Assembly: GCA_040954595.2 (NCBI GenBank)
Contig: CM082581.2
Coordinates: 2,720,699-2,784,698, forward strand
Direction: 5' to 3'
DNA from: Balanoglossus misakiensis
Taxonomy: Eukaryota; Animalia; Hemichordata
Length of the DNA: 64,000 nucleotides
This document shows, piece by piece, positions 1-39,522 of this stretch. The notes under the pieces are model-generated. The model did not search any database, had not been told where the DNA came from, and was given only the letters and a program-made list of their open reading frames with translations. The stretch's first letter is position 1, and each line of letters starts with the position of its first letter. The translations under genes and the position numbers were made by a program.

Positions 1-1249
1 AAAGGTACTTCATGGGGCCGCAAGGGTCTTTAACATAGGGTCCAAGGTCTTCTCCCCCTCCTGCACAGCCTAATGATGACCATTTAAGACAGTCCACCTG
101 TGAATCAAATATATGTGCATGTTTATAAGTAACCAATCACAAACTTGCATTATGTCATACTAATAAGTCAAAATATGCAGAACATGGTATAATGTAGGGT
201 CAAGGCTGTGTTGTGACAACGCATAACAATAGAATACTTAGCAGATAAATCTGTGAAACAGCAATTTTGAAACTCCATTTACAACTGACTAAGTAATAGT
301 ACTGCAGAGTATAGAAGCTCCATATGGGTATACTCTTACATGGCAATCAGGTGACAAATGATATTTATGTGTAAACAACAAAAACATGCACACAGACTTA
401 ATAACACTGTACCTAAAACATACCCACCCATGGACGGCAAACAAATAATTAAATTCAAGGCGCCTATATACAATTATAGCTATGGGTAATTCTGCCAATT
501 CTAAATGTGTCCAAACTGAATTCATGTCCAGTTCATTCACCTCATCATAATCACATTACAGGAAATCAATAATGCCCTAAAAAAGCAAATAAAGATGAAC
601 TCATGCTTACCAGAAAGTAGTCTTAACCAAGCTTCAGCGCACAGGAGAACGAGAAACCCTGGACCAGTTGAAATTGCGACAATCATGGCTTCCATCTGTG
701 AATGAAATATGCATAGCAGTTAGTAACAAATCATAAACCTGTAGGTCGCAATATATGGGATGTGATATAAGGGAGTGTTGAGAATATACTTCCCCAGGAA
801 TTGAGGTAGCTGTAGGATTTCCAGGGGGCCATCGATTTTTTTACATGAGAAATTGGGGGGGGGGGGCACATAACACCAGACTTTTAGGGATGGCTATGAA
901 AAAATAGCGTCAAGGACACTGTGGTCCCATTTGAGGATTACACAGAATTAGTTATAGACAAGAATAAAAATCACATTCGACACTGGCAAGCAGATATGAC
1001 CTAACCATATATAAATATGAAAATGTAAAACAATTAACAAGGACCATGCCCAATAGACTGTCATGTGTCATGGCAGTCTTACAAGTGATGCAAGAAAAAT
1101 TTATGTTTGACCAAAAATTGTGTGTAGAAACACACATGACAAGCAACTTCTTACAGTCAGCCCTTGGACAGACTGACAGACATTCAATAGCTAGTGGTCT
1201 CTGTAATAGCTGGCCTATTAAGTTATGTAAACATGTAGTGTAAACAGTC

Positions 1250-2420
1250 TCGGGGTACCAATACCTTGTAAACAGTAACTTTCAATGCAACTGGTCATGA
1301 GTTTAGAAGATTTGCTAACCGAAATCAATAATTTGCAAAAAAACTCGCTAAATATTTGTTCAAAAGTGGCAAAAGCACATACAAGCAAATATCACCAAAA
1401 TTGTTCAAAATCCTAACTTCAATCACCACAAGGAACATGCCTGCCAAAAAGGGAATCAATCAAAGCAATCTGACGAGCGGTTTCAGAGGGGAAAAATAAC
1501 AAAAAAATTATCATCAAAATTATAAATATGTAATTTTTTGCAATAATTTGAACAAAACCATGGTTGCTCAGACAACCTATAAGAAGCTTCATACTAAATT
1601 TCAAAGAAGTAGGCTGATCACTTTCAGAAATGAAGATTTTTTACCAATAATGTTGAAAAATTAATATAAACAAATGCATCAAAAATAGAAAATCAATATT
1701 AGCTCTAAACATACAGGACTGTTTGAGGTAGACATAAGGTACCTGCATACCAATTTCCAAATTAATCTGATTAGTAGTTGGTGAGTTTGAGTTTTGACCC
1801 ATTTCATATTTTTCCACCTAATTTGCATATTTTTTAAAGTCAATGACAACTCCATTTGAAGAAACTCCCTTTTACAGCCCAACATGCATCTACACACCAA
1901 ATATCAAGGTGATACACGCAGCGGTTTTCAAGTTTTTGATGTGGACGGATATACAGACATACATCCATCCATACATACAGACGCAACTGATTCCATTAGG
2001 TCCCAAATGGGACCTAAAAGTTCAAAGCAACCTGACAAGCGCTTTCAGAGAAAAAAGTTTTTGATAAAAATTGTACAAAAATTCCCCAATAACACAAACA
2101 CGCAATTTTAAGCATATTTTACATCTTACTTGGGTTACCCCCTAGGAATCTGCGTACCAAATTTCAAAGCATTTTGAGCAAAAATGGCAAAAATTGTTCA
2201 AAATTAAAAATGCCAATTTTACAACAATTTCGATTTGAACAAAACTATGGTAACTCGGACCACCTATAGGCAGCTTCATACTATATTTTGAAGGAGTCAG
2301 TCTATCGCTTTCAGAAATGAAGATGTTTTTACCAATAATGCAGAAAAAGACAAAACGATAAAAAATAGAAAATTCATAATATTAGCTCAAACCTACAGGA
2401 CAGTATGGCGTTTATTGACA
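1250..2420 (-). repeat. AT-rich interspersed repeat family (Helentron/DINE-1-like non-autonomous elements), recurring at ~3500-5260, ~7820-9380 and in opposite orientation at ~40800-41600
   Basis: Recurrent blocks such as ATCGCTTTCAGAA..GAAGATTTTTT, GGTCCC..GGGACCTAAAA hairpin ends and CATACAT/CATC microsatellite cores. The family label is inferred from structure. Confidence 0.5.
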
Positions 2421-3483
2421 TATTTATATGAATATGGATAGCGCATGATGGGGGAGGGAGTATAAATTCTGAGGGTGTCATCAATTTTTTGTCATAACTT
2501 TTGGGGGGCATATAAAAAAATAACCTAAAATGTAGGAAATCCTACACCCCCCCCCCCCAAGCTTTTATTCTTGCCAACAACTTTTTATAAAGGCCTCTGC
2601 AGTTTTGAAAGAAAGATTGCCTGCTATGTTAGACTATCAATCTACAGAGGGGATGAAAAATCCTATGTGAAGTGTCCAGTTTTTGATCAACTTCCGTAAG
2701 TTTCAACAGGTAAAAATATAACCGTAAATGTTTATCAACTTCACTACGTCTGAAACAGTATGCTTGCAAATGTATTAATATAGTCAGATAACATGAATAG
2801 TGAAGATAGCAAAACAAACAGGTTTATGCTTATGGCCATACCTACTATTAGCGATTGACATGTTGTACATAGCAAATTATTGTTTGGAGTTATGATCAAC
2901 ATGTTTTTATTGCATAAAGTCTCTTTATTGCATGTTTCATTTTACTCTGGAGAGAAATCTGTCCAAAGACGTTTACAGACTTGATGGGGATGATTTTGAA
3001 TAGTGTTCTCAAAAACCTGCAATTTCATGCCCTATATTATGAAGTTGAGGAGGGGTTGTATTCCTAGTAGGATGTTGAAATCACTGGAGAGAAACCATGT
3101 CAGTATAAAAAATTGCTAGGGGTGGTATCAAAGTTTGAAGATACCCAACATGATAAAATCAGTGTCCACACAAGTTTTAAGCAGCTTGCAGGACAGTAAA
3201 TAGCAAGTAATTCAAGTGTGTGTTTTTCAACCCAACATAACAAGTGGACTGATGAACTGACTAATGATCTCTGAAATGCCTAAATGTTTTTGGACATTGG
3301 CTAATCAAGGGGCTAAAAGTGTCTAATGGGAGACCTGTTCGAGACGATTTTGTGATATCAAGAAACCATGGAATACCTGCTCAAAAATTTTGAGTGACCT
3401 GCCACTGGGTAATTCAAAATAGAATAGCTGGTGGTCTGTGTAAAAGCTGGCATATTAAATTTACGTAAACATGTGGTGAATAC

Positions 3484-6400
3484 AGTCTAAGTTGGGTATA
3501 CCATCACCTTGTTAACATACAGTAACTTTCAAAGAAACTGGGCAATTGGTTCAAGAGAAGATTTGCTATCCAAAAACAAAGAATTTATAACAAAACTACC
3601 TAAATATTAAAAACCAGACTTTAATAAAAGTCGCACATACAGGTACATGTGTTATGAAATTGTAAACTAACTTCCAAAGCAATCAGAAAAAATAGTATTA
3701 CCCCTAGGAATATTCCTACCAAATTTCAATGCAATCAAAAGAACAGTTTCAAAGAAAAACACATTTGTTCAAAAGTGGCAAAAACACAAATATGCAAAAA
3801 TCACTATAATTGTACACCATCTTATTTTAATCACTACAAGGAACATTTCTGCCAAAGTTTGAGATTTGGGGACCTAACCCACCATAAATTGCAACAGAAT
3901 TTTTTTCTTCAGAATATATTTTGGAGAGGTGTCTAGATTAATTGAACCCGAATCCACCTTGTAGAAATATTTCTAATTTGCATACATTTAATATTGAAAA
4001 TTTTGGGGCCAAATATCAAGAAATAAACACGACCTTTTCTATGATTTTAAAGTATAAAAATATTTCATGTACATTAAGAACCATCTTGAAGTAATATTTA
4101 TGGGCAGATTTCATAATTTGCATAAATTCAATATGCTGAACAGTATTCCTAGAGTCCCATATTTGGGCTGTATATTGGGTATTACACAAGCTATTTTAGT
4201 GTTTTTATTCAAAACTATCTGTATGACATTTGGAACAATTTTGAAAAAAAAAAAAAGTTTACGTTTGCACTTTATATTTTGAATAAATTCAATATGGCCA
4301 CCAAATGAATGTTCTACAGCTTATCATACTCCAGCATATGTAATATAACCCCATACTAAATTTAGAAGGATTCAGACTATCGCTTTCAGAAGTGAAGATT
4401 TTTTTTGCCAATAATGTGGAAAAAGAAAAAAAAATTAATAAACATTAGAAAATTCATAATATTAGCTCAAAACATACAGGACTGTATGGGTTCATTGACA
4501 TACCAATTTTCAGATCAATCTGACCAGTGGTTGTCGAGTTTCTGACTTTTGACCAAATTTCACATTTTCACAGGTAATACTTTCGGCAATGACAACCTCA
4601 TTTGAACAAAATCCCATCTACAGCCCCGACTGTATCTACACACTAAATATGGAAGTGATACGCGCAGCGGTTTTCATCCATTCACTCCATACATACAAAT
4701 GCAACTGATTCCTCGGGTCCCAATCATATACATGCACATAAACCAAATGGGACCTAAAAATTGCTCCAAAATTATAAATACCCAAATTTTGGCAATAATT
4801 TAAACAAAACTAAGGTTGGTAACACAGATCACCTATGAAGCTTCATACTAATTATCAAACAAGTCAGCTGATCAATTCCAGAAAAGTAGATTTTTTACTG
4901 CTAATGTGGAAAGAAACAAAAAATGCATTAAAAAAAATCACATTATTAGCCCACAACATATAGAATTGTGTGAGGTTAACGTAAGGTACATGCATACCAA
5001 TTTTCAATTTTGAAAGCAATTTGCCCAGTAGTTGTCGAGTTTCAGAGTTGACGAATTAGACACTTTCCCAGTTAATTTGCATATTTTGGCAATGACAACT
5101 TCATTTAGACAAACTCCCATCTACCCCTGTGCCTGCATCTCCACACTAAATATCAAGGTTTCCAAGTGTTTGATGTTGACGGACATACAAACATCCATAC
5201 ATACATCAGGTGCAACTGATCCAATAAGGTCCCATGGTATAAATACAAATACCAAATGGGACATAACAATTCTGATAAAATGCCTACATAGCTAGTGTAA
5301 AAACACTTGTACCTTCAACGCCCTTGGACAACACATTTTTGTAACTTCCCCAGATCAATGGCTAATATGACTTTCCAAAGGCGACTAAAATTTGGGGGGG
5401 GGGGGGGCTGATGCAAATTCTGATACATGTACTTCATGATTTAGAGAAATGGTGAAAATCCTGTCAACCAAATTACAGGGAAATCAGATTTTCCATGTAA
5501 AATCATATCACCCAAAAATGTCAAAAGTGTCGAAAATAATTTTGAAACAAAAAGTCTACTCAAAATCATACCAAAATTTAAAGTTTAATGCAGTTGGGCA
5601 AGTAATTTGAGAATGAGGAAATTTACAAAATAATTTATAAATAATTTACAAATGCCGCACACAAACTTACAATTACTACCATGGTACCAGCAGAGACATT
5701 GCGATCGAGCAATCCCCAAGATATACATGACATGGTCTAATACAAATATTGAATATGTAAAATAAGTACACAACACTTCCAGTCTTTCAGTACAGTCAGC
5801 TGCTTGTGAACAATTTGCAGGTAGGTATTTCATCAAATTTACAGACCAAGTCATGCCTATACAATTCTCCCCTGAAATACGTTTTAAGCTACCCTAAGTG
5901 AGTGATGAAAATCTCATATTGTCGACAATTTCAAGATGGCCGATTTTTGCCATGTTAAAGAAATGGGAGTTCATAAGCTAAAGTGATAATGGGTCATTCT
6001 TGAACTTTTTAACAGAAAAAATAACAAAATGTGAAAAAAGTTTAATGAGTTTAATATGCTAACTACAGAGAACGACATGTTTGACCAAAGCATGAAATAC
6101 AAAAAATGTATCATTTCTTCTATCTTTTACTACAGTGGGTTGTGGACTTTTCGCCCAGAATGCAATGTGATTTGACGCCTAGTGCAAAGTGAAAACCTAT
6201 TTAAGGCAGCCAGAATGTTCTGCACAGTATGACGGGAAACATTTGTAAAGTCATGGCTAGCGTGGGCTAGTAAGTTTATGGGACTCTCCATGATAACCGA
6301 TTGTGGCTTGCCACCACCATAATTTTGAAAGGGCGACTTCACTGTTTGATGGGAAAAGGTAGCATTTACAAACAAGCTATGGAGCATGTATACAGCAAGT

Positions 6401-9400
6401 TGTGCTTACCGGAAAGCGGTCTTGGAAAAGGCCTAGGTATTCTCTTCCTCCTCCGGCATACGTTGAAATGCTGTGTTTAAGACTGTGAATCAAATATATG
6501 CAAATATTAATTAGTAACCAATCAACTTTGTTTTAGAATTATGTGGGCCATACTAATTAGTGAAAATATGCAAAACATGGTATAATGTACGGTCAGACTG
6601 TGCTGCGATAATGTACAACAGTGGAATACGTCGATCTTAAAACTCCATTTACATCAGTACTGCAGTAAAGTGGTCCACATGGGTATATACCCCAAACATT
6701 GCAATTAGGTGACAACTGAAACTGACATGATATCAGATTCTGTAAATGACAGAAGGTGTACACGCACTTTGACATCTATGTAACACTGTACAATGATTTC
6801 TTTGTTTGTTGTGAAAATGAAACTTGCATTTGATCCATCTCACTTTTCATACAACTGATTAGCATAAGAATGTACATTGTTGGCAATTATAAAACATTTA
6901 TTTAAGTATAGAAAAGTAAGCCTTAAACTTTAAACTTTAAATATCAGTATACTAAAATGTTTCAAACGTGGCTGTCAGTATATCTCATGGCGTGGTGGCG
7001 GAAGTAGATGTTGTTACCAGGGAAGACATATTGAACACAGACAAGCCCAATAGTCGCTTGGTGATTTTTTATCTTTATAAAGATTCTCAAAACTTTTTGT
7101 GCATTTAGTAGCTTTGAGCAAGTTTCTGGTACTGATCAGATTTCCGAATTCAGGACTGCGCTTCTCTGGCTTTGGTCACCATCAGCCAATGTGATCCTAC
7201 GCACACATTTTTGAAGAAAAAAAATCCAGCCTGTTTGTGTCATGATTTATATTTTCTTTGCGGCCTAAGGTATTGTTTTATTTCACTCTAAACAACATTA
7301 CTTTCCTTCATGTGTCTATACATAATAATAGATCTCTTAGCCAGTTTGATTAAGCATGGTGTTGGACTAGCACACTTTCAGCCAAAGTTACGGTATCTCC
7401 CTGTGTATTGATATGGGAGTAATTTCTAGCTATATGGTTAAGGAAATGCATCCAAATTTAATTTATGCATCACATGAAGATTTGAACTTGACCATTTAAT
7501 TCATGTCATCACGATCATATCACAGGCAATCGAGGCCAGAATTCGAAGGGAAAAAAAAGTATTGATAACTGGAATGTGTAAATTAGTTCGTAGACATACA
7601 AATTGCTTCCTATTGCTTCGGTTGCAAAGCCCGATAAAAGCAAATATATAGCAAGTCATGCTTACCATTGAGCGGTCTTAAACTCGCCCCAGATGAGGAA
7701 GAGAATCCTGAGTTGAAATGCAGGCAATCTCAGGCAGCATCTGAGAATCAAATAGACCTAGAAGTTAGTAACCAGTCATAGTAGCTCTAAGTTGGATGTA
7801 AAAGTCTAAGTTGGGTGTACCAACTCACCTTGTTAACAGTAACTTTCAAAGAAACTGGGCAATTGGTTCAAGAGAAGATTTGCTATCCAAAAACAAAGAA
7901 TTTACAACAAAACTACCTAAATATTAAAAACCAGACTTTAATAAAAGTCGCACATACAGGTACATGTGTTATGAAATTGTAAACCAACTTCTAAAGCAAT
8001 CAGAAAAAAAATTTGGGTTACCCCTAGGAATTTTCCTACCATATTTCAAAGCCATCAAAAAAGCAGTTTCAAAGAAAAACACATTTGTTCAAAAGTGGCA
8101 AAAACACAAATATGCAAAAATCACTATAATTGTACACCATCTTACTTCAATGACTACAAGGAACATTCCTGCCAAAGTTCAAAGCAACCAGACAACGGTT
8201 TGAACGTTTTCAGAGAAAACAGTTTTTGACAAAGATTGCATAAAATATCTCCAAATAAGACAAAGATGAAGTTTTAACCATTTTTAAGACATCTCACTTG
8301 GGTTACCCCTGGGAATCTGCCTACCAAATTGCAAAGCATTCTGACCAAAATTGGCATAATTGCTCAAAATTATAAATATGCCCATTTTACAACAATCTGA
8401 AAAAAAATATGGTAACTCGGACCACCTATAGGAAGCTTCATACTAAATTTCGAAGGAGTCGGACTATCGCTTTCAGAAGTGAAGATTTTTTTACCAATAA
8501 TTTGGAAAAAGACAAAAAATTAATAAACATTAGAAAATTCATAATATTAGCTCAAAGCATACAGGACTGTATGGGGTTTATTGACATACAAGTTTTCAGA
8601 TCAATCTGACCAGTGGTTGCTGAGTTTCTGACTTTTGACCAATTTCACATTTTCACAGGTAATACTTTTGGCAATGGCAACCTCATTTGAACAAAATCCC
8701 ATCTACAGCCCCGCCTTCATCTACACACTAAAAATGGAAGTGATATGCACAGCAGTTTTCATCCGTTCATCCATACATACAGATGCAAGTCATTCCATAG
8801 GGTCCCAATCGTATATATATATATACACAAACCAAATGCCATGGGACCTAAAAATTGCTACACAATTAAAATACACAAATTTTGCAACACTTTAATCAAA
8901 ACTATGGTAACTCAGATCACCTGCGAAGCTTCATACTAAATTTCAAACAAGTCAGCTGATCAATTCCAGAAAAGTAGATTTTTTACCGATAATGTGGAGA
9001 CAAAAAATGTAAAACATTGGAAATTCACATAAGCTGACAACATAAAGGGCTGTGTGAGGTTACTATAAGGTACATGCATATCAATTATCAATTTTTAAAG
9101 CAATTTACCCAGTAGTTTTTGAGTTCCTCAGTTTTGACAAATTTGACACTTTCCCAGCTCACTTGCATATTTTGGCAATGACAACTTCATTTAGACAAAC
9201 TCCCACCTACTGCCTTGCCTGTATCTCCACACTAAATATCAAGGTCACACGCCAGTAGTTTCCAAATGTTTGATGTTGATGGACATACAGACAAACAGCC
9301 ATACAGACATCCATACATACAGGTGCAACTGATCCTGTAAGGTCCCATGGTATAAATACATATACCAAACGGGACCTAATAATTTTAATAAAATGCCTTC

Positions 9401-11529
9401 ATAGCTAGTGTAAAAACCACTTGTACCTTCAACGTGCTTGGACAACACATTTTTGTAACTTTCCCAGATCAATGGCTAATTTTTTTTGGGGGGGGAGGGG
9501 GCGATGCAATTCTGATACATGTACTTCATGATTTAGAGATCTGGTGAAAATCCTGTCAACCGAATTACAGTGAAATCAGATTTTCCATGGAAAATCATTT
9601 TACCAAAAAATTTCAAAAAGTGTAGAAAATAAATTTGAAACAGAAAGCCTACTCAAAATCATACCAAAATTTAAATTTTAATGCAGTTGGGCAAGCAATT
9701 TGAGAATGAAGAAACTTAGAAATAATTTATAAATTGAAAATAATTTACAAATGCTTCACACAAACTTACAATCACTACCATATTACTGTACAAGTTAAAA
9801 GGACATTGTACCAGCAGAGACATTGCGATCGAGCAATCCCCAAGATATACATGACATGGTCTAATTACAAATATTGAATATGTAAAATAAGTACACAACA
9901 CTTCCAGTCTTTCAGTACAGTCAGCTGCTTGTGAACAATTTGCAGGTAGGTATTTCATCAAATTTACAGACCAAGTCATGCCTATACAATTCTCCCCTGA
10001 AATACGTTTTAAGCTACCCTAAGTGAGTGATGAAAATCTCATACGGTCGACAATTTCAAGATGGCCGATTTTTGCCATGTTAAAGAAATGGGAGTTCATA
10101 TGCTAAAGTGATGATGGGTCATTCTGGAACTTTTTAACAGAAAAAATAACAAAATGTGAAAAACAGTTTAATGGGTTTAATATGCTAACTACAGAGACAG
10201 ACATGTTTGACCAAAGGAAGTCATGAAATACAGTAAACATATAATTTCTTCTATCTCTTACTACAGTTGGTTATGGACTTTCCGCCTTGAATGCAATGAG
10301 ATTTGACCCCCTAGCGCAAAGTGAAAACCTATTTAAAGCAGCCAGAATTTTCTGCATAGTATGACAGAAAAACATTTGTAAAGTCATGGATAGCATGGGT
10401 TGGCAGGTTTATGGGACCCTGCTCATGTTCCCTCGAATAAAACATGATACATGTTTGGTGACTTATTATTCTGTATTTGTTGATTTTGTCATATTTTCAG
10501 ATAAATCCCTATCAATCAGTCATATTTGTTCGGCCTTGCTATACAGCGAAATATAAATCTTGTTGACTGAAATTGTTGAGGATAGTGTTACATAAAGGTT
10601 ACCCATTGGAAAATATTAAAATGATTATTAGTGGTGTCCAACTCTTCATGATAACCAGTTGTGGCTTGCCACCACCATAATTTTGAAAGGGCGACTTCAC
10701 TGTTTGATGGGAAAAGGTAGCCTTTACAAACAAGCTATGGAGCATGTATACAGCAAGTTGTGCTTACCGGAAAGCGGTCTTGGATCAGGCCTAGGTATTC
10801 TCTCCCTCCTCTGGCATACGTTGAAATGCTGTGTTTAAGACTGTGAATCAAATATATGCATATTAATAAGTAATCAATCAACCTTGCTTTAGAATTATGT
10901 GGGCAATACTAAATAGTGAAAATATGCAAAACATGGTATAATATAGGGTCAGAAAAAATATCCAGCCTGTTTGTGTCATGATTTACATTTTTCTTTCTGA
11001 CCTATATTATTGTTTTTGTCACTTTAAACAACATTACTGTCCTTCATAAGTCTAATATGATAATAGACTTCTTAGCCAGTTTGATTAAGCATGGTGTTGG
11101 ACTAGCGCATGTTCAGCCAAAGCTACAGTATCTCCCTGTGTATTGGTATGGGAGTAATTTTAGCTATATGTTTAAAGAAATGCATCCAAATTTATTCTAT
11201 GCTCCATGTGAAGATTTGAACTTGTGAGTTGTCCATTTAATTCATGTCATCACTACCATATCACAGGCAATCAAGGCCAGAATTCGAAGGGGAAAAAACA
11301 AGTATTGAAAGCTGGAATGTGTAAATTAGTTCGTAGACATACATTGCTTCCTATTGTACCGTTTGCAACGCGTGATAAAAGCAAATATATAGCAAGTCAT
11401 GCTTACCATTGAGCGGTCTTAAACTCGCCTCGGACGAGGAAGAGAATCCCGAGTTGAAACGCAGACATTTTCAGGCAGCATCTGTGAATCAAATAGACAT
11501 AGAAGTTAGTAACCAGTCATAGTAGCTCT
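3484..11529. repeat. Tandem segmental duplication, ~4 kb units (~3484-7788 and ~7804-11529), with indels
   Basis: Both units start GTCTAAGTTGGGT and end ACCAGTCATAGTAGCTCT. Long colinear blocks match (e.g. 5700-6100 vs 9820-10230; the near-identical ORFs 5585-5854 and 9716-9979 reflect this). Region 1-1300 contains an older paralogous block. Confidence 0.85.
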
Positions 11530-11684
11530 GCGTGGCAGGGCTGCGTGTTAACAGCTATGCCATAGCTGACACTGGTAGCTTATAACAGTCTCGATGGTGT
11601 AAAAAATCTCCCCAACAACAAAACTAATTCTGGTCAGTTTATTCGCTATCGCTTTGCCTTAAAAGTTATACTGTAGTGTGTTAC

Positions 11685-12101
11685 CACAGGGGGCTCTCCC
11701 TCCGCGATTTTATTGTTTGTTTGTTTGTTGTTGTTGTTGTTGTTGTTGATTGGCATTATAAACAAATACATATTTCTTTATTAATAAATATGGTTTGTTG
11801 ACATGTAAGTGTTAGGGAATATTCAACGGTTAGCATTAGTGTTGGCACTTTTTTCGATCCACGGCCCCGGGCATCACTAAGCCACGAAGAGAGGGTGATG
11901 CTGGCCGTGGATCGCAAAAATGCCAACACTAATACTAACAGTTGAATATACCATAACCTGTCAAATATACCCTAATAACCTAACCCTTACATGTCAACAA
12001 ACCATATTTATTGACAAAGAAATATGTATTTGTTTATAATGCCAATCAACAACAACAACAAACAAACACACAATAAAATTGCGGAGGGAGAGCCCCCTGT
12101 G
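11685..12101. mobile_element. Palindromic MITE with CAC..GTG ends
   Basis: CACAGGGGGCTCTCCCTCCGC..GCGGAGGGAGAGCCCCCTGTG inverted repeats extend through most of the element. It is flanked by direct repeat GTGTTAC (11678-11684, 12102-12108); an alternative reading is CCAC..GTGG with TGTTA. Confidence 0.85.
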
Positions 12102-12547
12102 GTGTTACGGTACCACCTGCCCCACAATGACAAAGCTGACTCGAGGCCACGAACGACGTACAATTTACTCGCACGGTGTAAAACAACGCATGAATTCCAT
12201 GCGACTGTGAGTTTACTGTTCGGCGCTGTAACGCTTCCCAAAGTCAGAATTTCGATGTTGGGAAGACACTGTCGCCCTACCACTACCAGTTTTTGCAAGA
12301 AGGAGTGTACATGTACTTGTAAAATAACATTAAATGCCATGCTTACCAGAGAAACGACATCATCAAGCATGGAGGCGACCGGGACCTCCATGCTTGATGA
12401 ACGTCGAAGCTGCAATGATTTTTCAAATGCAACGGTCAGCGGTACGAGAACGAGGCAGCACCTGCTCGTCAATTATGCAAATTAGTTACTACTCAATCAG
12501 AATCTTGCTTTCGCATTCTAATTAGTCAAAGTATGCAGTGCAACGTT

Positions 12548-14189
12548 TGTGTGCGGGTGGAGAATGCGCCTCGCCAACTGATGAATTCTCTGTCACGGCG
12601 TTCTTTGGAAGTGCGATTATGTAACCGATTATCTCATTAGGGACATAGATAATATATTTTGTCTTCTTCAATTTGTTTGTACTACGAAAACAATTGCGAA
12701 ACGAATAGCAAGCGCTTACGCTATGAAACGTAAATAAATATCAGTCATGGCCATGTAGAAACGGAACGTCAATCCGCATTTGTCAAAAAATAATAGAAAA
12801 GACAAAGAAGCTGAGGGGAATGACCTCTCCGTTCTGACCTATCTGGGGAAGGCCTATTGCAATACGCAATATGTCAGATCATGCTACCATCCGCCATTCT
12901 GATTGGACGAGAGCTCAATCCATCGATACGAAAGTACTCAATAGAGCACTGCTGAAACTGGCCCTGAACTAATCGCATGCAACAGGGAAAACGCGACCTT
13001 TCAAATCAAATAAATACAAAAAATACAGCCAATGAATTTACGGCCGGCCGGTTTATTTCTTAACTGCTCTATAGGAATTGTTGTCACTGCCATGGACCAC
13101 TTCGCGGATAGCATAACACAGGGTGTTGTGGGACAGTTTGCGTTCTGAGCGCGTGCATTAGCCATGCAGTAGACGCTATGTTGAACGCAAATTATACCAT
13201 CATGCATTGCAGATACCCTATCCGCGTAGTGGTCTATGCACGATGCATGTCTTGTCACTGCGCACTCGACAAATTGGACCGTTTCTATAAAAAATATGAA
13301 CTGTGACTTTTGATTTTATTGAGAAATGTCTCTCGAATTAAGACCATGTAACGTAAATCAAGGAAATGTATTCTGCTAAAGTTGCTCCTGACGGGTTCGC
13401 TGAAACATTGTGTTATTGGTAAAATACGTCAAGTGTAAAATATTGAGTTACCTAATATGATAAAATATCAGATTTATGTGTTTAATCAAGATAGGCCTCT
13501 CTTCATATGTTTCATTTATTTGGTTTGAATAAAAGTTATCTGATTCAGTTTCATGAAGTATACACGGATTAAATGTTTATCCACTGTAGTGCCACTGAAA
13601 TGGCTTTCACGTTTGAGACTTCGGGCGGTAATCTTATATTTACTTTCTTCATTTCTATTGGAGTAGACTACACCGGGGTCGACCTAAAATATCTATAAGC
13701 AATGCGCAAAGGGAGTATTTCAGTCGTGATGACCGGACGATGTCGGACAAAGTCTACAACTTAATACACGATCACCTCCAATTTGCATATGTCCATAAAT
13801 GGCTAAACTTGCGTATCCTAGTGTTCTAAAGAACAAATGGTGGCGCTCTTATTGTCGCGTGTGCCACCTCCTGATTATCTGTGATTGGCTGTATCTCAAT
13901 TTGCCATGGTAACAGTAGCTAAATTTGCATAGGTTACCGTATACCTTTAAGGCACGTCAAGCGTATGTCCTTGTTGGGCTGTCTGACAGGAACGAATCGA
14001 GACCCACCGCACAGTCACGCAATAATGAAATCCACATCGCCAAAAACGATGTTTCACTAGACTCGGGTACATGCAACTATCTCATGGCATTTACAGAATT
14101 GAACACCCCAGGCAATGTTACGTGTTGCTCCATGACTGTTGCTCCATGACCAACCAAACAGCAAACAACAAACTCATGTCCAAACCAAT
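12548..14189. repeat. Copy 1 of a 1.64-kb tandem duplication; copy 2 = 14190-15446 + 28573-28886, interrupted by the Chapaev element
   Basis: TGTGTGCGGGTGGAGAATGCG starts both copies and CATGTCCAAACCAAT ends both. ORFs 13925-14149 and 28621-28845 are identical. Copy 2 lacks ~75 bp present at ~13626-13700. Confidence 0.92.
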
Positions 14190-15446
14190 TGTGTGCGGGT
14201 GGAGAATGCGCCTCGCCAACTGATGAATTCTGTCACGGCGTTCTTTGGAAGTGCGATTATGTAACCCCGATTATCTCATTAGGGACATAGATAATATATT
14301 TCGTCTTCTTCAATTTGTTTGTACTACGCAAACAATTGCGAAACGAATAGCAAGCGCTTACGCTATGAAACGTAAATAAATATCAGTCATGGCCATGTAG
14401 AAACGGAACGTCAATCCGCATTTGTCAAAAAATAATAGAAAAGACAAAGAAGCTGAGGGGAATGACCTCTCCGTTCTGACCTATCTGGGGAAGGCCTATT
14501 GCAATACGCAATATGTCAGATCATGCTACCATCCGCCATTCTGATTGGACGAGAGCTCAATCCATCGATACGAAAGTACTCAATAGAGCACTGCTGAAAC
14601 TGGCCCTGAACTAATCGCATGCAACAGGAAAAACGCGACCTTTCAAATCAAATAAATACAAAAAATACAGCCAATGAATTTACGGCCGGCCGGTTTATTT
14701 CTTAACTGCTCTATAGGAATAGTTGTCACTGCCATGGACCACTTCGCGGATAGCATAACACAGGGTGTTGTGGGACAGTTTGGTTCTGAGCGCGTGCGTT
14801 AGCCATGCACTAGACGCTAGGTTGAACGCAAATTATACCATCATGCATTGCAGATACCCTATCCGCGTAGTGGTCTATGCACGATGCATGTCTTGTCAGT
14901 GCGCACTCGACAAATTGGACCGTTTCTATAAAAAATATGAACTGTGACTTTTGATTTTATTGAGAAATGTCTCTCGAATTAAACCATGTAACGTAAATCA
15001 AGGAAATGTATTCTGCTAAAGTTGCTCCTGACGGGTTCGCTGAAACATTGTGTTATTGGTAAAATACGTCAAGTGTAAAATATTGAGTTACCTAATATGA
15101 CAAAATATCAGATTTATGTGTTTAATCAAGATAGGCCTCTCTTCATATGTTTCATTTATTTGGTTTGAATAAAAGTTATCTGATTCAGTTTCATGAAGTA
15201 TACACGGATTAAATGTTTATCCACTGTAGTGCCACTGAAATGGCTTTCACGTTTGAGACTTCGGGACGGGCGCAATGGGAGTATTTCAGCCGTGATGACC
15301 GGACGATGTCGGACAAAGTCTACAACTTAATACACGATCACCTCCAATTTGCATATGTCCATAAATGGCTAAACTTGCGTATCCTAGTGTTCTAAAGAAC
15401 AAATGGTGGCGCTCTTATTGTCGCGTGTGCCACCTCCTGAATATTT

Positions 15447-15494
15447 CACGTATGTTTAAAACGCCGGATAACGTCAACTGAGTTCTACGCATGC
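15447..15494 (+). repeat. Left bipartite TIR: CACGTATGTT - 15 bp - CGTCAACTGAGTT-nnn-CGCATGC
   Basis: Read directly: box1 15447-15456, spacer 15457-15471, box2 15472-15484, CGCATGC 15488-15494. Confidence 0.9.
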
Positions 15495-16088
15495 TCAGAA
15501 AAAATTAGCATAATTCTTGGGTCATGACCTAGATAGATGACGTATTGTGTGTAAATACAAAGGAACGGCCCATAGAAACCGTCCCGCCCCTTCATGTTTC
15601 CCCGGACTTTCTGCCAATAAATTTGGACCATTAAATGTCAATAATCTGTCAAACTATCCATATATGTCTATATTTTTCGCATAATTAGCTGTATGGGTGG
15701 TTCCAAATCCAAAACGCGCGAAATTTTGACTTTGCGGTCGTCGAGCCTAGTCCGCGTCAGACAGACGCTCAGGCTGGGTGACGACATCTGTTTCACAGGT
15801 TACGTAAAAAATAATCGTATTTTAAACAATTTTCTTGAGTTTTACTTGACATTTGGTTTTCAACAAACGTTTCTTCATCAATTACATTTTTATTTTATGA
15901 ATTAGTTCTCTGAGGCTAATTTTATTTTCATTGCTCTCCAGATAAAAATATTTTTTTTTGCGATCGTAGGAGACGCCCGTTGCTAGGGACGCCATTTCAT
16001 TTTTTGCTGTCGGTGATCGCATTTTGTTGTTTGATAGGGTACTTTCGCTTTATTTTGGGGGTTCGATTTTAGGTTGTGATAGAAAATA

Positions 16089-19000
16089 ATGATGTTTGGT
16101 TTAGAATTCCATAGATTTTGTTTGAGTAAATTGTGTAGAATTTGTGGGGGGAGAGCCCAAAGTTCATTGAGTTCATTACAAGGAAAATCGCCCAAGCAAT
16201 GTTCTGTTTATGTCAACGAAATATTATCAGTTTTTGGGGTTGATATTTCGAATGATGAAACAGATGTACATCCCTCAAACTTGTGTTTCCTATGTTACAA
16301 AAAAATATGTAACAATGCAAATTTTTATGGTACCAGTGATCAGTGGGTGGGCCATCCTAGGGTTGGGTCCTGTAGTATATGTGAGATGTTTACAAAACAA
16401 AGTAAGGGTGGGAGACCAAAAAAAAATAAAAGGGGAAGGCCACCAACTTATAAGAAAGGGGAGGGGGAATATACTATCAATTCTGGGGAGGGGTCAATTT
16501 TGACAAATGAGGGGTTGGAATATCTAACAACACAAGCCAGGGCTTCACAGACATTTCATTGGCCAGAAAACTTCAATCCAATGCTAACTGAAAATGATGT
16601 TAAGTGTAGTGTGTGTTTGTCTTTGTTCAATTGTCCATTGGAAAGTCCTTGTGAACATGTCTTCTGTAGTGAGTGTCTAATCAATGTATTCAAAACTGAA
16701 AATATGTCATGTATTCGCTGTCCTTGTTGTAGTCAGCCGGTCTCATGTTTTTCTGTTCGTCCAGCTAAACGTTATTTTCTGAATGTTTTGTGTTCTCTTC
16801 CAATGGAATGTCTTAATTGTAAACAAACTGTTGTCCTTGATTCTGTGTCGCAGCATGTCTGTCCCCAAAGCCCAAAGCCTGTCCCCAATGTCACAAATAT
16901 TGAAAGTACAATTACCGCCAATATTTTACAAAGGCCACCAGACTTGCCACTCACTCCTGCATTGGAAAAGGTGGCAACTCATCTTCTTAGAACAAAACTT
17001 CACCAGTCAACTGATGGTAAGACTGCTGTTTACAAAACTGGCGGACCGGTGAGTTTCACTTTCAATATCATAATCATAATTGCGTGCATGGCATGTTTAC
17101 ATTAACCCTTTCAATTCAAAATGAAACTGGAACATTTGTTTGATTTCAATAAAATGTAAAATTCTAAATTTGTGAGCTGCCAGTACTCAAACAATGAAGC
17201 ATCAAGATAAGAAATTAATTTAAAGAAATAGTAATTTTATTGTCTTTAATGATTTTCAAGAATCTTGTTGTGATGCACACTCCACAACCAAGAAAATCAT
17301 CAGAGCAGGCAACAAGGACTACCATCAGACAAAGGTCCAGGTATCTGGAAGAACAAAGGGACATAATTAGTAAGGGCAGTACAAACCAGCAGCACAGAGA
17401 TGAGATACAAGTGGCATCAAAGCAACAAAGAATAGATCAAATATTTGACAAAATACCAAGAACAAGAGTGAGTCATGAGGAGATGCTCTCATTGAAAGCG
17501 GATATAGGGATCTCATGGAATTCCAACAGAAAACTGAAAAGGTAGGTTGATAGCTATGTCACAAGTTATTGCTAATCACATGTCATAATTTCATGCATAC
17601 AGCTGCTTAGTAATACATATAAAAATTATAATGATTGTCTTACAAGTCTTACATTCTTTTTATTTTATATCAAACTCAGATGGTTCAACCAATGTGGTGT
17701 AAAAACAGCTGGAGAAGGCAAGATTAGACAAGTAAAGGAAGACATCGTCGGAGAAAACATTCTTGCTGAAAATCTTCCTTTTAGGTTTACAGACGAGAAT
17801 GGACACAAACAGATGAAGCTGGCACCATGGATATGTGTGGATGACTTACCCTTGAGGGTCATCAAACAATTGGAAGAAAATGACAAGTAAGTTTGAAACA
17901 ATATCATTTCTTTTTCTGAGACTGGCAAACAGGACATTGACTCATGCATAATACTTACCTTTCTATCTACGCTAAAAAAATATGAAGACATGGGGTCCAT
18001 AGAGTCCTGGAAAATCCTGGAAAGTCCTTGAATTTGATAGTGTTCCTGGAAGGATGCAATTTACCCCAGAAATACCTGGAAAATAATCAATAAATAACAA
18101 TGATTATTCATCGTGTTTATACAGATAATAGTATATGTAGGTCGTGTTAACTATATGATCTTACCGGTCAACACTTCTAAAAAATCAAGATGTTTGTTTA
18201 AATACTCCTGGAAAACTAGTTGGAAACTCCTGAAATTTTATTTGATACCACATCTAAGAACCTGGTGATGAGTTAGTGAATTATGACATGTTCAATACTA
18301 AATGGTTTCCTGGTTTATTTTGTAGACTGAACAACCTGACATGGCACAACAAAATCCCAGCTAAAGAAATATGGCTGAAAATCGGTGGCGACAAGGGAGG
18401 GGGGAGTTTCAAAGGCATGTTTCAATTGGCTAATGTGCATCGTCCAAACAATAAAAACAACACAGTCGTCTTCTGTCTCTATGAAAGTGGGGACTGCTAC
18501 TCGAATTTGGTCAAAGCTATTGCAAGGTTCAAGGAGCAGATCAATCGATTGAAATCATTAACCTGGAAGTAAGTTTATTTCTTAACATCAAACAAGTTTT
18601 GTGTAGAACTTCAATTATTTAAAGATATGTTATCAATACAATTTTGGAGTACATTGTAGTATGAGACAAAACACATATTTCTCACTAATGATGTTTTCTT
18701 TTATTTTGATTGGAATAGAGACAAAGCATTCCGAGTATTTGCTTTTGGCGACTACGAGTACCTTTGTAGGATGTATGGTCTCAGTGGTCCAAGTGGAAGG
18801 CATTTCTGCCTATGGTGCCTTGCCACACAAGAGGATGCCCAGACTGCAAGGCACCACAGGCAGATACCTCTAAGGACCCTGGCCCAATTGGAACAAGACC
18901 ATGACAAGTTCAACACCCTGGGTAATGGCAAGTTAGCTAATGCAAAGAAGTACAATAATGTCATACACAATGCCATCTTTGACATTGAAATATCACAGGT

Positions 19001-22000
19001 AATCACAATTACTGACTTCTAATTAATTTTCTCTTGTCCCTATCCAGTCGATACTGATAACTGTGGTTTTAATTTGACAATAATATTCACCAACGATTTA
19101 ACCACTGTCTCTGTGCTTCCCTATATCAAAAGCAAGGATGATAAATTATACTATGAATTTTACTGTTACAGGTGTGTGTACCGAGTCTTCATCTTGATCT
19201 GGGAATCTACCTGAGGTTTTATAACCTGATGGAGGCAGAAATAAATGCATTAGACAGGAAAATCGGGGTATACCTCGCTGAGTGCCATGCTGACACCAAT
19301 GGGTACACCCCTGAGTTCCAACAATATGTACTAGCTATGGAAAAAGTTGCTGAAAAGCAAGAAGATTTACTGCAACTAAAGCTTCAGACTCAGAGTGACA
19401 ATCTACAAAAAGAAATAGAACTACTGGTAAGAAATCATTATATGTACATGTATTGGCATGGTATCTGTACATAACTCATCTGAAAATATACTGATGCCAG
19501 TGATTGTACCTAACAAATGAAATTCTGCTGAGAAAATGAACTTGTAAATCATACAAATTTAATCCCTTTTTTATTATAGGAGAAGGCAATCAAGGACATG
19601 TTGGAGAACACCACATTGAAAGTCACAGCTGGCATACTAGCCCAAAAGCTCGACAGTGTACTCCAACAGATTGGCGTTCACTAAGTATTTAAAGCCGCAT
19701 CACTTCGCTCATGGATATGCCTATTGTTAAAGGAATGGGTCTGGGCTTTTGGAGGCGCATCCATAGCGAAGTGTAAAACCTCTTATATTCAAAAAGCGGG
19801 AGGGCGGGTGGGAATACATTCGCAAAGGATTTACCGAGGGGGCTGGTCATATAAAATCCCCACCCTGTCCCGTTTACGCACATAGCCCTGCTCTCTTGGC
19901 CTATTGCAAGGGAGGGACAGACTGTACGTTGCTCGTTGCTTTTATACTTCGGCTCATTTGCATATGGCGGATGGATATCGCTCTGTGCTGCGGTTTTGAA
20001 TAACTAAGTATTTAAAGCCGCATCACTTCGCTCATGGATATGCCTATTGTTAAAGGAATGGGTCTGGGCTTTTGGAGGCGCATCCGGACGCAAAGCCTAT
20101 TCTCCTCGCGCTTGAGCCCATTATTACCTAGTTGGGTATCCCCCCAATCCTTAAAATACAGTCAACCAAAGTAACAAACAAGCTTCCACTACAAACACAC
20201 CCAACCTTCATCCAACCATAAATTACGGCTGGAAATGAAAAAGAACGAAAAACGGTACCTTCATTTTATTGTGCTTTATTCCGTTATAAGTACTTGAAAA
20301 TTGTCTGGTGCACTCTTCCCTGTCGGGGTATAGTGCGAGAGAGAGAAAACAAAGGGGAAAAAAATAAATTTACTGTGTCAGAGAAATACATCGGGAGGCT
20401 CATTTTTTCTCAACAAAAGCCTTGGAAAATCCAATTAACTCATTGAGGTTCTCATATCTTTTTGTGTTCTGCTTTTCGTCGTTGGCTAACTCAGATAAGG
20501 TGCTTGCTGGTGATCCCCAACTAATGACCTTCCCTAACTGCATATAGTACTGTGCCGTTTCTTCCGCCCTCCAACCCACATGGGACATAAGAGTCTTAAT
20601 GTCCGTGCCTGCCATGGCCAAAGAAATAGCGCAAGCACTTCGGCAGCCATGTGGGGTTTCGCCTGCGTCGATTCCTACATCTAGTAGGTATGTTTTTAAC
20701 CGGTGATAAGCTAATTGCGATGAGAACGGTTTTTGCTCTGGCACTCCCTGTGAGTTTGTAGGGCGAAACAGGTAACCTGTTGTAAGGTCGATATCGAGGC
20801 TGGATGCAAGCTCGAGATATGCCTCCAAAGTGTTAATCGGACACATGAGAGTATCTTGGCATCGCTTAACTGCGAATAGGTTTGACCCCGCCCCCCGGAG
20901 CGTTTTACCAAAGGTGTGATTGAAGAGCAGGCCTGAATTATCGGGTAGCCGCAAAATTTCCTGCGTTTTCACGTGTCCTAAATCATGCGCCCTGTCACCA
21001 GAGAAGGCTAGTAATTTAAAAAATGCCATATCCCTGGCGAGAATGTACAATTGTTGAGCAGTTTGTGGGCTCTTCATTTTGTCTATAATATGACGGTAAA
21101 TTAGCCGCATCTTATCTAGAAAGAGAGGTTTCGCCTGCTTTGGTGTCAGGAGTGCTCTGGCCTGTTCTTCAGATGTTTTCTTAATGTACCTTTCTATTAT
21201 AATTGACTCCAAGGGGTTAGGGGTGGCCTTACCGGCTACCACTGCCTGGGACTGATAAAATGTCTTTAATTTGGAGACCATATTTCTGACTGTATTGGCA
21301 CGGAGCCTTTTTGGACAAGCACACTGCTGGAGTCCAGATGATCCTAAATGTGCACAATTTACCTCATGTACCTGAGTTTTCGCGTCTTTATCTTTAAAAA
21401 TAAGGAACCTAGTGATATCTTGGGGTGTTGCCGACCAGATACTTTTTTTGCTATCCAACTTAAAAAGGAACGACTCCAGTTGTTGGACGAGACGGTCCTT
21501 TTGTATTTCATGTTGAGAGCGATCGCCGAGAATGACTTGCATACGCTGATCGATTTCCGGCAGGTTAAAACCAGTTGGGAGACTTCCCTGGGCATGTTCA
21601 CGCTGGCGAGAGTAGTGAGTCTTGGTGCCACAGTTATGGCAGTAGTTTTCGTGATGATTGTCCAACCCGCACATCCAGCAGTCCTAAGCGGGGAAAATTG
21701 GACAAGCACGTGAAGACGTACAGTGCGCATGATTTATTCGCTTGTATATAAAAAAAAAATACGTATATTTATCCGTTGAATAAAATTATTTTGTTTCTTT
21801 ATTTTTTGTCTGTCTGTCTCCATAATTAAGACCTAAGGGGCGAATGTAGCGACAAAAAGGTCGCACTGTAGCTTATACGGATGATAACCCGATCGTGTTG
21901 GCCCAAGCACGACGCCGACCTCCCCTCGACTGGCGAATTTGTTGAAACTACGTGCCGCCCTCTGGATTGACGGCCAGAACGGAGGGTAGTGGCTCCGAGG

Positions 22001-25000: not shown

Positions 25001-25519
25001 AGGTTAACGATGGAGTATGGGCCAGGTGCATGACTTTTTCCAAGGCGTCATCCACAGATGCGGTTTCTGTCAATTCTTGCAGTTTCTTCACCTGCTTCTT
25101 TAGGTTCTCCAACTCCCCTTTCTGCAATAAACGTACACATACAATAACTTCTCTGCCCATTACCACGGGTGGAAAGTATGCTTGCTCTCCCGTACTGAAT
25201 ACTCCCCTTTTGTTTACAGGGCGAGCGCCTTATTACATAGGCATCAGCAAAATTCAAGGCGAACATGCTTCTGCCACGTAAATGACCGCTCACGTTGCTC
25301 CTCCCTCGAGCCTATGTATTTCCTTTGGCCTCAGCCACAATAATTCGGCGCTCTCGCAGTCATCACCGGATGAACTGCCTGGCCGGTCTCCTTGGCACTC
25401 ATGGGTATAACCCACCCAGCTCTATTTAACAAACAAATGTTGGCGCTCTCGCAGTATATCACACTGCCTGGCCTGCCGCTCACTCCTGTAACTCCAAGTA
25501 TTCGACGCATATTGCATAG

Positions 25520-25562
<43 letters not shown>

Positions 25563-35002: not shown

Positions 35003-35420
35003 TGTGGTGAGGTTATTACTTGACGTGATGGGGAAATGCAACGACGTGGGGAGGTTATTGCTTTACGTGATGAGGACATGCAACGACGTGGGGAGGTTAT
35101 TTCTTGACGGGATGGGGAAATGCAACGACGTGGGGAGGTTATTATTTTGGCGTGATGGGGACATGCAACGACGTGGGGAGGTTAATTCTTGACGTGATGG
35201 GGACATGCAACGACGTGGGGAGGTTATTTCTTGACGGGATGGGGAAATGCAACGACGTGGGGAGGTTAATTCTTGACGTGATGGGGACATGCAACGACGT
35301 GGGGAGGTTATTTCTTGACGTGATGGGGAAATGCAACGATGTGGTGAGGTTATTTCTTGACGTGATGAGGACATGCAACGACGTGGGGAGGTTATTGCTT
35401 TACGTGATGAGGACATGCCA
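35003..35420 (+). repeat. Left subterminal 42-bp minisatellite (~10 copies)
   Basis: Unit GTGGGGAGGTTATTTCTTGACGTGATGGGGAAATGCAACGAC. Confidence 0.92.
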
Positions 35421-38400: not shown

Positions 38401-38695
38401 ATAGGACTAAGCACACTACAGAATGGAAGAATTCCACAGTTCATGAGTGAAGAAGTGCGACAGCAGCTATTTGAAAAGCCTTCTCCATCCCCATGCATTG
38501 AGAAACTGAGACAAGGGTTTGACAAACTTGGCATTTGCAAGGTATGTCGTTATTCAGTCAACAAGTTGGTATGATAAAAGTATAATTTTTAATAAATTCC
38601 CTTGTCAACCTCACAAGCTACATTGATTAGCTCATAGTCCTTATAGCAATCTTCTTGTAACTAGAACAATTTAATGTTAAATCATTGCTATTTAA

Positions 38696-39304: not shown

Positions 39305-39522
39305 TTAAGTAGTCTTACAGTTGTTTGTTTCATTGCAGCTTGTTAAGAAACTACCCCTGCTTGTGCATTTATTTGTGCCAATGCCAACAGTGCCTTGACA
39401 TTCAGAAAGCTGAAGACCCTATTAAAACCCAAGTTCAGTCCCGATGGATCTAATAATCGCAGAGAAGAGAACAACGTGTACGCGAGCTTCATTTCGTACA
39501 TGACAGAAGCTGCAGGCAAGTA

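Follow-up and report, generated by a model that had tools for sequence, protein, structure and literature searches.

What kind of RNA, if any, is made from a row of short exon-like segments that are complementary to one another in pairs, and does splicing create the hairpins that these segments can form? The question is raised by a stretch of 64,000 nucleotides from the hemichordate Balanoglossus misakiensis (GenBank assembly GCA_040954595.2, contig CM082581.2, positions 2,720,699 to 2,784,698), which was analysed as a whole and is referred to below as the window. The first-pass annotation of this DNA had proposed a multi-exon non-coding gene of paired exons, expanded by duplication, in which hairpins are closed only by splicing. 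The gene architecture fits the sequence, and we consider it likely that the segments are parts of a single spliced non-coding RNA with predicted hairpins; its predicted and most likely function is that of a split small-RNA precursor. The role ascribed to splicing had to be revised.

Results

On the minus strand, to which all exon coordinates below refer, there is a row of seven short, related segments that carry splice signals; they have no common reading frame. Six of them had been delimited correctly in the first-pass annotation, and their branch points, acceptors and donors are related. They make up three pairs of predicted exons: A1 (11407 to 11481, 75 nt), which holds the 5' arm of stem 1 together with GTTTAAGAC (11424-11416), with B1 (10768 to 10840, 73 nt), which holds the 3' arms of the junction stem and of stem 1; A2 (7666 to 7740, 75 nt), identical to A1 at 67/75 positions, with B2 (6410 to 6482, 73 nt), identical to B1 at 69/73; and A3 (611 to 695, 85 nt), 67-70% identical to A1 and A2, with B3 (1 to 97), which is at least 97 nt long, runs off the window and carries the 3' arm of the strongest stem. 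The complementary arms that had been quoted were located at 7708-7689/6456-6436 and 665-641/64-39, and the reported short motifs were recovered, AAGAC in all six segments and TTTCAAC in five, B3 being the one that lacks it. The acceptor of B3 lies 8 nt further upstream than those of B1 and B2, and at its other end a donor at the homologous place is absent.

The splice signals set these segments apart from the rest of the window. The donor word GGTAAGCA occurs six times on both strands of the 64 kb, always on the minus strand (at 12346, 11406, 10767, 7665, 6409 and 610) and always at the end of a predicted exon, and a degenerate donor pattern gave five matches vs none in 100 shuffles. A branch-point-plus-acceptor motif likewise has six occurrences in the window, one preceding each of the six segments. 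An acceptor block of about 40 nt, consisting of a branch point, a T-rich tract and CAG, precedes every exon (for example 11482 to 11521), and between old paralogues these blocks are 80-92% identical vs 70-80% for alignable deep intron, a difference that reached p 0.029 (Fisher) for pair 1 vs 3 and was not significant (p 0.37) for pair 2 vs 3. Transcription and splicing of the segments are predicted. A profile search and an AG ranking found no further paralogous exons in the remaining 51 kb. A metagenome scan with a 24-base donor pattern returned two matches, on contigs of 60% GC and with only a 25-base match, which we attribute to chance.

The seventh segment, E0 (12347 to 12461, 115 nt), was overlooked in the first reading; it was recovered independently and is the most upstream member found. 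Its donor, GGTAAGCA at 12346, is the best non-training match of the donor profile (E 0.12), and the AG upstream of it ranks 7th among 6537 AG sites in likeness to the six acceptors. It is related to the A and B exons via its splice flanks only, since its body shows no significant similarity to theirs in 12 comparisons (the best reached by 11/1000 shuffles, uncorrected). E0 is predicted to fold into a self-contained hairpin of about 22 bp, with arms at 12405-12385 and 12375-12356 and fold z values of -6.3 sense and -5.8 antisense. The intron between E0 and A1 contains a fold-back element, recognised as an inverted self-match (11683 to 12103); a match of this element to the Rfam family mir-153 (E 0.92) is ascribed to chance. 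CpG-rich DNA with an observed/expected ratio of about 1.0 starts at 12001 to 12600, a candidate promoter region; the ratio is 0.17-0.69 over the exons vs 1.0-1.3 from 12 kb, and the CpG-rich DNA is largely repeats.

Two of the checks that had been proposed for a non-coding RNA were a conserved reading frame across the exons and a search of Rfam. No conserved frame was found across the exons, stops occur in all frames of a 593-nt model, and the longest stop-free run among 127 exon combinations is 87 codons. A protein-coding exon repeat was rejected because no open frame is conserved with an excess of silent changes, as was a selenoprotein-like read-through, under which B still has stops. Rfam gave no match at gathering score over the 64 kb and five matches at E up to 5 over positions 1-13000, none of them on an exon, and ARAGORN returned nothing. 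A host gene for an intronic C/D or H/ACA snoRNA conserved above background was likewise rejected: there is no Rfam snoRNA match, and TGATGA is kept in all three A-B introns without a matching CTGA in unit 3. A spliced-leader RNA and a self-cleaving ribozyme were rejected too, with no Rfam match to E 5 and with an upstream acceptor at every unit.

The A-B complementarity extends over about 19-28 bp and exceeds chance by several measures. For pairs 1, 2 and 3, respectively, duplexes between A and B are better than shuffles with z values of -2.8, -3.6 and -4.7, and their scores are reached in 4, 1 and 0 of 500 dinucleotide shuffles, in 16, 0 and 0 of 500 local 12-nt shuffles, in 14, 3 and 0 of 1000 shuffles when only Watson-Crick pairs are scored, and in 65, 18 and 38 of 5000 random 75-nt pairs from the window; A-A and B-B control duplexes are at chance level. 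Among old paralogues, cognate pairs are 14-18 kcal/mol better than cross pairs, an advantage reached in 0.8-5.8% of neutral simulations that start from a perfect inverted repeat (P 0.018-0.128 by Watson-Crick score). Selection on pairing, with P about 0.01-0.13 for cognate over cross against neutral simulation, is thus suggestive only. Between the two young copies, cross pairing is slightly more favourable than cognate pairing (-91.2 vs -87.6 kcal/mol), and folding of the entire transcript predicts that A1-B2 and B1-A2 outcompete A1-B1 and A2-B2 unless the pairing span is limited. The reported bias toward G-U wobbles on this strand holds for pair 3 (G-U:A-C 10:2, p 0.019; 15:8 under a looser score) but not for pairs 1 and 2 (4:6 and 4:2; 8:11 and 5:8 under the looser score). 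Within the window, the arms have no targets beyond 11-base chance matches.

Modelling of spliced and unspliced RNA does not uphold the view that the hairpins are closed only by splicing. The long stem is predicted almost as fully before splicing as after it (20 vs 21, 18 vs 19 and 27 vs 28 pairs), and equilibrium folding is predicted to close this main stem across the intron. The short stem at the junction behaves otherwise. It measures 9 bp in pairs 1 and 2, as had been described, and 7 bp in pair 3; stems of this kind are reached in 2, 2 and 27 of 1000 shuffles, and the three other junctions have stems of 4-5 bp. Its expected number of pairs rises on splicing from 5.1 to 8.0, from 0.05 to 7.8 and from 1.5 to 8.1. 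Even here, the 3' arm that was thought to be created across the splice site, GTCTTAAAC, is already contiguous in the unspliced DNA (10841-10833 and 6483-6475), because the intron also ends in G. Strict gating by splicing is not supported for the main stem; a clear predicted gain is limited to the junction stem only, and the chief effects of splicing in these models are a shorter loop and a shift towards the 9-bp junction stem.

Pairs 1 and 2 lie in a tandem duplication (3484 to 11529, minus strand) of two units, 11529-7803 and 7788-3484, with matching blocks 86-94% identical and a short direct repeat at the join. Each unit consists of an A exon, an intron, a B exon and a repeat-filled intron. 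On the sequence, the exon-like units demonstrably arose by repeated duplication of one exon plus its intron ends. The arms are 59-81% identical between old paralogues; pair 3 differs from pairs 1 and 2 in its arms and would therefore differ from them in any seed.

We also compared the predicted hairpins with the known classes of small-RNA precursor. In intron-split microRNAs an intron lies between the hairpin arms, and that arrangement is found here between exon-like units with intact splice signals, their splicing being predicted. For a hairpin RNA or endo-siRNA locus, which is rejected, the long inverted repeat is lacking, and stems of 19-28 bp have room for one duplex. Canonical pri-miRNAs have at least 16 pairs between their arms; considering candidate Drosha cuts at paired positions 24-40 only, we found 15-20 pairs in the 22 nt above the cuts, and at least 16 in 34/35. 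The basal UG at offset -14 and the 3' CNNC at +16 to +18 are optional in real miRNAs; none of the 35 cuts has both, and pairs 1 and 2 each offer a single cut that combines UG with CNNC at +15. What a canonical precursor would also show, a stem of about 35 bp bounded by single-strand junctions at base and apex, is absent: below the candidate cuts there are 0-11 pairs in 13 nt, the confident long stems reach about 19-28 bp, and the apical domain is structured. By its modelled geometry this RNA falls outside the canonical animal pri-miRNAs. Its precursors would measure 77-126 nt, with stems about one small-RNA duplex long, and the unsplit hairpin of E0 is of the same size. Neither a conserved mature sequence among the paralogue arms nor a known miRNA family in Rfam at gathering score was found.

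Discussion

By analogy, this locus is best read as a spliced, lineage-specific non-coding RNA made up of intron-split hairpins, which is likely to serve as a small-RNA precursor like miR444 and miRtop14; that one spliced RNA is made and its predicted hairpins are cut into small RNAs we give a probability of about 0.35. Transcription would run leftwards from the CpG-rich DNA near 12.5 kb, and splicing would follow the order E0-A1-B1-A2-B2-A3-B3. The B middle would descend from an inverted A-type middle in an early duplicate, the pairing later being retained by selection. The arms could already meet across an intron of 0.5-1.2 kb, and splicing alone would shrink the loop to about 50 nt and set the 9-bp apical stem, giving a compact hairpin of 80-125 nt for an RNase III of Dicer or Drosha type, as in plant intron-split miRNAs. 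Since the arms could meet beforehand, splicing would tune processing rather than create the stem. A more far-reaching version seems rather improbable. In it, the locus would be a polycistronic non-coding gene and the first cluster of intron-split small-RNA precursors in an animal; the arms of each hairpin would lie in separate exons descended from one ancestral module, splicing would turn dicing on, and the duplex would be picked by exon choice (A1-B1, A1-B2 or B1-A2).

Known systems resemble the locus in part. There is a likeness to plant miR444 (monocots) and miRtop14 (Solanaceae), which according to the accessible text of PMC11706861 have an intron between the hairpin arms, a loop shortened by splicing and arms of about one duplex; that text also relates that a non-spliceable gene for tomato miRtop14 yields almost no mature miRNA and that the intron-split layout had previously been seen only in miR444. 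Unlike those genes, as that part of the source presents them, ours lies in an animal genome, has three split hairpins and one unsplit in tandem with arms diverging between paralogues, and is known from its sequence alone, with no target. The Drosophila hpRNAs (Nmy/Tmy, in tandem copies) are likewise young, duplicating and fast-changing inverted-repeat animal loci and yield small RNAs, but in the portion available of bioRxiv 10.1101/2021.08.05.454923 they have an inverted repeat of about 130 bp homologous to target genes, whereas our stems are 19-28 bp, intron-split and without another match in the window. Measured against canonical animal pri-miRNAs as set out in the available part of PMC7668254, the locus agrees in having at least 16 pairs within 22 nt and hairpins clustered in one non-coding transcript, and differs in the lack of a continuous stem of about 35 bp, in a structured apical part of about 50-60 nt and in misplaced motifs. 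Long-range pre-mRNA pairings and RNA bridges also span introns (PMC8052449), and duplication-made competing structures also show cross-pairing among duplicated units (PMC6071210), but the cases in the accessible text of both are mainly intronic and in protein-coding genes, whereas our stems have both arms in exons of an apparently non-coding gene.

A close rival, which we hold to be somewhat unlikely, is that the pairing is a neutral by-product. On this view, after a non-coding exon module had been copied, one of the two copies had its middle inverted and the pair was then reduplicated; the complementarity would be a leftover and the hairpins would idle in an RNA that may still be spliced. Exon duplication with local inversion can be the origin of much of the pattern. 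A and B have common flanks and two direct anchors and are complementary in their middles only, and A-B alignment scores rise from 24-26 to 35.5-43 once the B middle is flipped; the fit is imperfect, with overhangs of 7-10 nt, and is matched by shuffled flips in 35-70/1000. An old inversion is a possible source of the complementarity because the covariation evidence is borderline: the cognate-over-cross advantage and the G-U excess of pair 3 speak against neutrality, but the young pair shows no coevolution. The exons are not more conserved than the introns (A 67-70%, B 76%; p 0.35), and 5/12 of the A1/A2 and B1/B2 changes are CpG transitions. A duplicated module with short inverted ends would give cross-exon junction stems for free, and stem-loop duplication is a published source of competing pairings, in the part of PMC6071210 available; against this, a junction stem of 7-9 bp is kept in 3/3 pairs, even after the 8-nt shift of the B3 acceptor. 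It is improbable that the stems instead bind proteins or brake translation, as structural modules of a lncRNA or of the long multi-exon 5' leader of a protein gene situated beyond the left edge of the window. Such a role would agree with a short helix with one bulged purine common to all three stems, with an ATG at 13-11 in the donor-less B3 that is open to the window edge, and with the ATG that opens every A exon and starts a frame of 20-32 codons; yet TTTCAAC and AAGAC are shared simply because the exons are duplicates with these words at homologous places, B3 has lost TTTCAAC, and Rfam offers no match.

Since the stems are predicted in unspliced RNA, and the junction stem of pair 1 would place the A donor region beside the B acceptor, the structure might also control splicing, the A-B stems bridging the intron to join donor and acceptor, or B-A' pairing and donor hairpins modulating exon choice. 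Intron-looping long-range pairings are known in human genes (accessible part of PMC8052449), and a predicted hairpin of 7-8 bp lies over the donors of A1, A2, B1 and B2 (for example 11391 to 11409, minus strand), where 7 bp are kept in 4/6 exons with one U-A to C-G change. We nevertheless regard such a role as quite unlikely: in the common register A3 and E0 do not keep the donor hairpin intact, the covariation term is unfavourable (+0.72), and there is no known product whose splicing needs control. Most unlikely is that the segments are non-transcribed remains, decayed coding exons or transposon fragments. The window is full of mobile elements; searches with its transposon proteins gave, in turn, no match, a 40% match to a Hydractinia protein and RAG1 clusters in the Atlas, which suffices to place the DNA in an animal but not in a phylum. 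In pairs 1 and 2 an A+B frame stays open over 49 codons, but this frame has 8 amino-acid changes vs 3-4 silent ones (hand count), nor is it open in pair 3; with lengths of 115, 75, 73 and 85 the exons keep no frame; and the seven units have a single orientation, intact splice signals and no other copies in the window.

The literature consulted, partly in excerpt, documents intron-split microRNA hairpins for plants alone, and searches by title and the start of abstracts, with most subscription papers outside their scope, retrieved no animal intron-split hairpin. Genome-based miRNA finders fold contiguous DNA and so would probably miss such animal loci. If the neutral reading is true, the locus would cleanly illustrate how a conserved RNA structure can be faked by duplication and inversion. 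If the preferred reading, a precursor of small RNAs, is confirmed, it would widen animal small-RNA biogenesis and make exon duplication with inversion a route to new hairpins.

Results

The minus strand carries all six short exon-like segments of the first-pass annotation where it had placed them, as three predicted pairs: A1 (11481-11407) with B1 (10840-10768), A2 (7740-7666) with B2 (6482-6410), and A3 (695-611) with B3 (97-1). Upstream of each lies a block of ~40 nt that combines a branch-point-like word with CAG; the window contains six such blocks, one per segment, and no others at this stringency. The donor word GGTAAGCA occurs six times on both strands of the window combined, five times directly after A1, B1, A2, B2 and A3, and once at 12346, where it ends a seventh predicted unit, E0 (12461-12347, minus strand); the homologous site of B3 has no donor. 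The AG upstream of E0 ranks 7 of 6537 AG sites by likeness to the six acceptors, and E0 is the top non-training match for both splice-flank profiles, each match being weak alone (E 0.27 and 0.12). Its ~22-bp hairpin is strand-neutral, since the fold z is -6.3 on one strand and -5.8 on the other. CpG observed/expected is 0.17-0.69 over 1-12000 and 1.0-1.3 over 12001-16000, which fits a promoter near E0 with a methylated gene body, a large share of the CpG-rich part being repeat. An octamer-like ATTTGCAT lies at 12482-12475 (minus strand) inside the acceptor-like block preceding E0; because the B2 acceptor block holds a similar word, its presence here may reflect inheritance and not promoter function. 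All three A-B introns keep a box-C-like TGATGA (minus strand, about 11250, 7510 and 548), and a conserved box D is absent from them. Stop codons interrupt every frame of the 593-nt spliced model; an A+B frame that stays open in pairs 1 and 2, but with 8 amino-acid changes to 3-4 silent ones by hand count, is closed in pair 3, and Rfam and ARAGORN returned no matches on the exons.

The surrounding window is AT-rich animal DNA rich in mobile elements upstream of the exon cluster. A RAG1-like gene of several exons, encoding importin-binding and RING domains (16083-19474 and 26720-27079, plus strand), is apparently interrupted by a retroelement. A tyrosine-recombinase retroelement (about 19690-26090, minus strand) has long open frames for gag, RT/RNase H and ALOG-plus-integrase, and repeated sequence at both ends. 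Integrase-type elements are present as well, and an rva_4 integrase gene (halves at 44007-44630 and 50260-50973) houses a Gypsy-type element (44766-50266) with a single frame of 1597 codons and identical 168-nt terminal repeats. Two related 42-nt tandem arrays in inverted relative orientation, 16 kb apart (34962-35485 and 50934-51863), may mark both ends of a single large DNA transposon. A frame with a SAM domain (35427-36353, plus strand) shares 40% identity with a HECT-domain protein from Hydractinia (648 aa). Adjoining E0 upstream is a recent, CpG-rich 1.64-kb tandem duplication (12547-15444; blocks 98-100% identical), part of which is repeated at 28573-28872, and fold-back elements, both with long inverted arms, lie at 11683-12103 and 38688-39312.

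The proposed complementarity of A and B exceeds chance. The duplex energies are -42.4, -45.2 and -61.4 kcal/mol (pairs 1, 2 and 3). Among 500 dinucleotide shuffles, 4, 1 and 0 matched them, and among 500 local shuffles 16, 0 and 0 did; Watson-Crick-only scoring concurs, and control duplexes (A1-A2, B1-B2, A1-A3, E0-A1, E0-B1) are at chance level. Junction stems measure 9, 9 and 7 bp, and the other junctions (E0-A1, B1-A2, B2-A3) 4-5 bp. Tandem duplication, also proposed, is borne out for pairs 1 and 2, which lie in recently duplicated units (11529-7803 and 7788-3484); the number of independent cases is therefore two rather than three. A and B share two direct-orientation anchors, TTTCAAC and AAGAC, and direct flanks (acceptor side 78-82% identical over 40 nt, donor side 72%), and their middles are reverse complements. 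In the simplest history, an exon with its intron ends would have been duplicated and one copy's middle inverted; the A-B pair would then have duplicated, one copy becoming pair 3 and the other giving rise, through the recent duplication, to pairs 1 and 2. The inversion is not clean, with 7-10-nt overhangs left, and shuffled flips equalled the real flip in 54, 70 and 35 of 1000 cases.

In the folding model, the idea that splicing alone closes these hairpins is not borne out for the long A-B stem, which is predicted to be nearly complete in unspliced RNA (20.3 vs 21.0, 18.0 vs 18.9 and 26.6 vs 28.0 expected arm-to-arm pairs, unspliced vs spliced, in pairs 1, 2 and 3). For pairs 3 and 1, the minimum-energy structure and the centroid structure of the unspliced RNA each contain this stem. 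Splicing does favour the junction stem (expected pairs rise 5.1 to 8.0, 0.05 to 7.8 and 1.5 to 8.1), but does not create its 3' arm, GTCTTAAAC, which is contiguous beforehand because the intron ends in G. Since this equilibrium model of 700-1300 nt takes no account of folding kinetics or of proteins on the RNA, gating by splicing is weakened rather than eliminated. Splicing would certainly turn a loop of 0.5-1.2 kb into one of about 50-60 nt.

Discussion

We tentatively favour, at a probability of about 0.35, a spliced non-coding RNA whose tandem hairpins would serve as small-RNA precursors, both RNA and processing being predictions. We favour it because the stems are one duplex long, E0 looks like an unsplit version, and sequence has turned over with pairing suggestively kept. 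Such turnover with pairing retained is typical of young small-RNA loci. Splicing might act as in plant intron-split miRNAs, such as miRtop14, for which a gene version that could not be spliced yielded hardly any mature miRNA (PMC11706861). The A-B hairpins differ from canonical animal pri-miRNAs, which have a ~35-bp stem (PMC7668254); we rejected that class for lack of such a stem, predicted precursors of 77-126 nt, and UG and CNNC both in register at 0 of 35 candidate cuts. No animal intron-split hairpin emerged from a largely open-access literature searched by title and abstract opening; the one "spliced miRNA" passage, in a Drosophila survey, concerns mirtrons (10.1101/125997).

Only slightly less probably, the pairs are a neutral leftover of duplication and inversion. 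Duplication is described as making competing pairings (PMC6071210), and in whole-transcript folds A1-B2 and B1-A2 compete with cognate pairings. A neutral inversion should leave cognate and cross pairs between paralogues equally good. Cognate sums beat cross sums by 14.1 and 18.1 kcal/mol (hand-chosen arms) or 15.7 and 18.5 kcal/mol (anchor-defined middles). Neutral simulations that started with a perfect inverted repeat, under nine parameter sets, equalled this advantage in 0.8-5.8% of runs when scored by energy and in 1.8-12.8% when scored by Watson-Crick pairing. The advantage comes mostly from weak pairing of B3 with A1/A2; A3 with B1/B2 is nearly as good by score (19.5 vs 21.5), and across the young duplication it is the cross pairs that do slightly better. 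The reported strand-specific excess of G-U wobbles survives strand-neutral alignment in pair 3 (G-U:A-C 10:2, 11:2 or 15:8; p 0.019, 0.011, 0.105) but not in pair 1 (4:6 to 8:11) or pair 2 (4:2 to 5:8), and a tilt towards G-U is also seen in some cross pairs that involve the G-rich B3 (9:4, 13:10). Old paralogues are 67-76% identical in exons, 70-80% in deep introns and 80-92% in acceptor blocks (block vs deep intron, p 0.029 and 0.37). From this pattern and the cognate and G-U results, constraint is apparent on the splice signals but not on the exon sequence, and the evidence that pairing has been retained is suggestive.

A structured lncRNA, or the 5' leader of a gene that lies outside the window, is unlikely; the ATG at 13-11 would fit it. 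It is improbable that pairing steers splicing. In favour of that reading, a predicted 7-8-bp hairpin covers the donor in four of the six exons (11391-11409, 7650-7668, 10752-10769 and 6394-6411, minus strand), where a single base pair differs between the A and B types, U-A against C-G, and long-range pairings that loop out introns are known from human genes (PMC8052449). That the segments are not a gene is more doubtful still.

The architecture is real and unusual, its expression and function being predicted from the 64-kb sequence; if functional, it would be a variant of the known intron-split hairpin layout.
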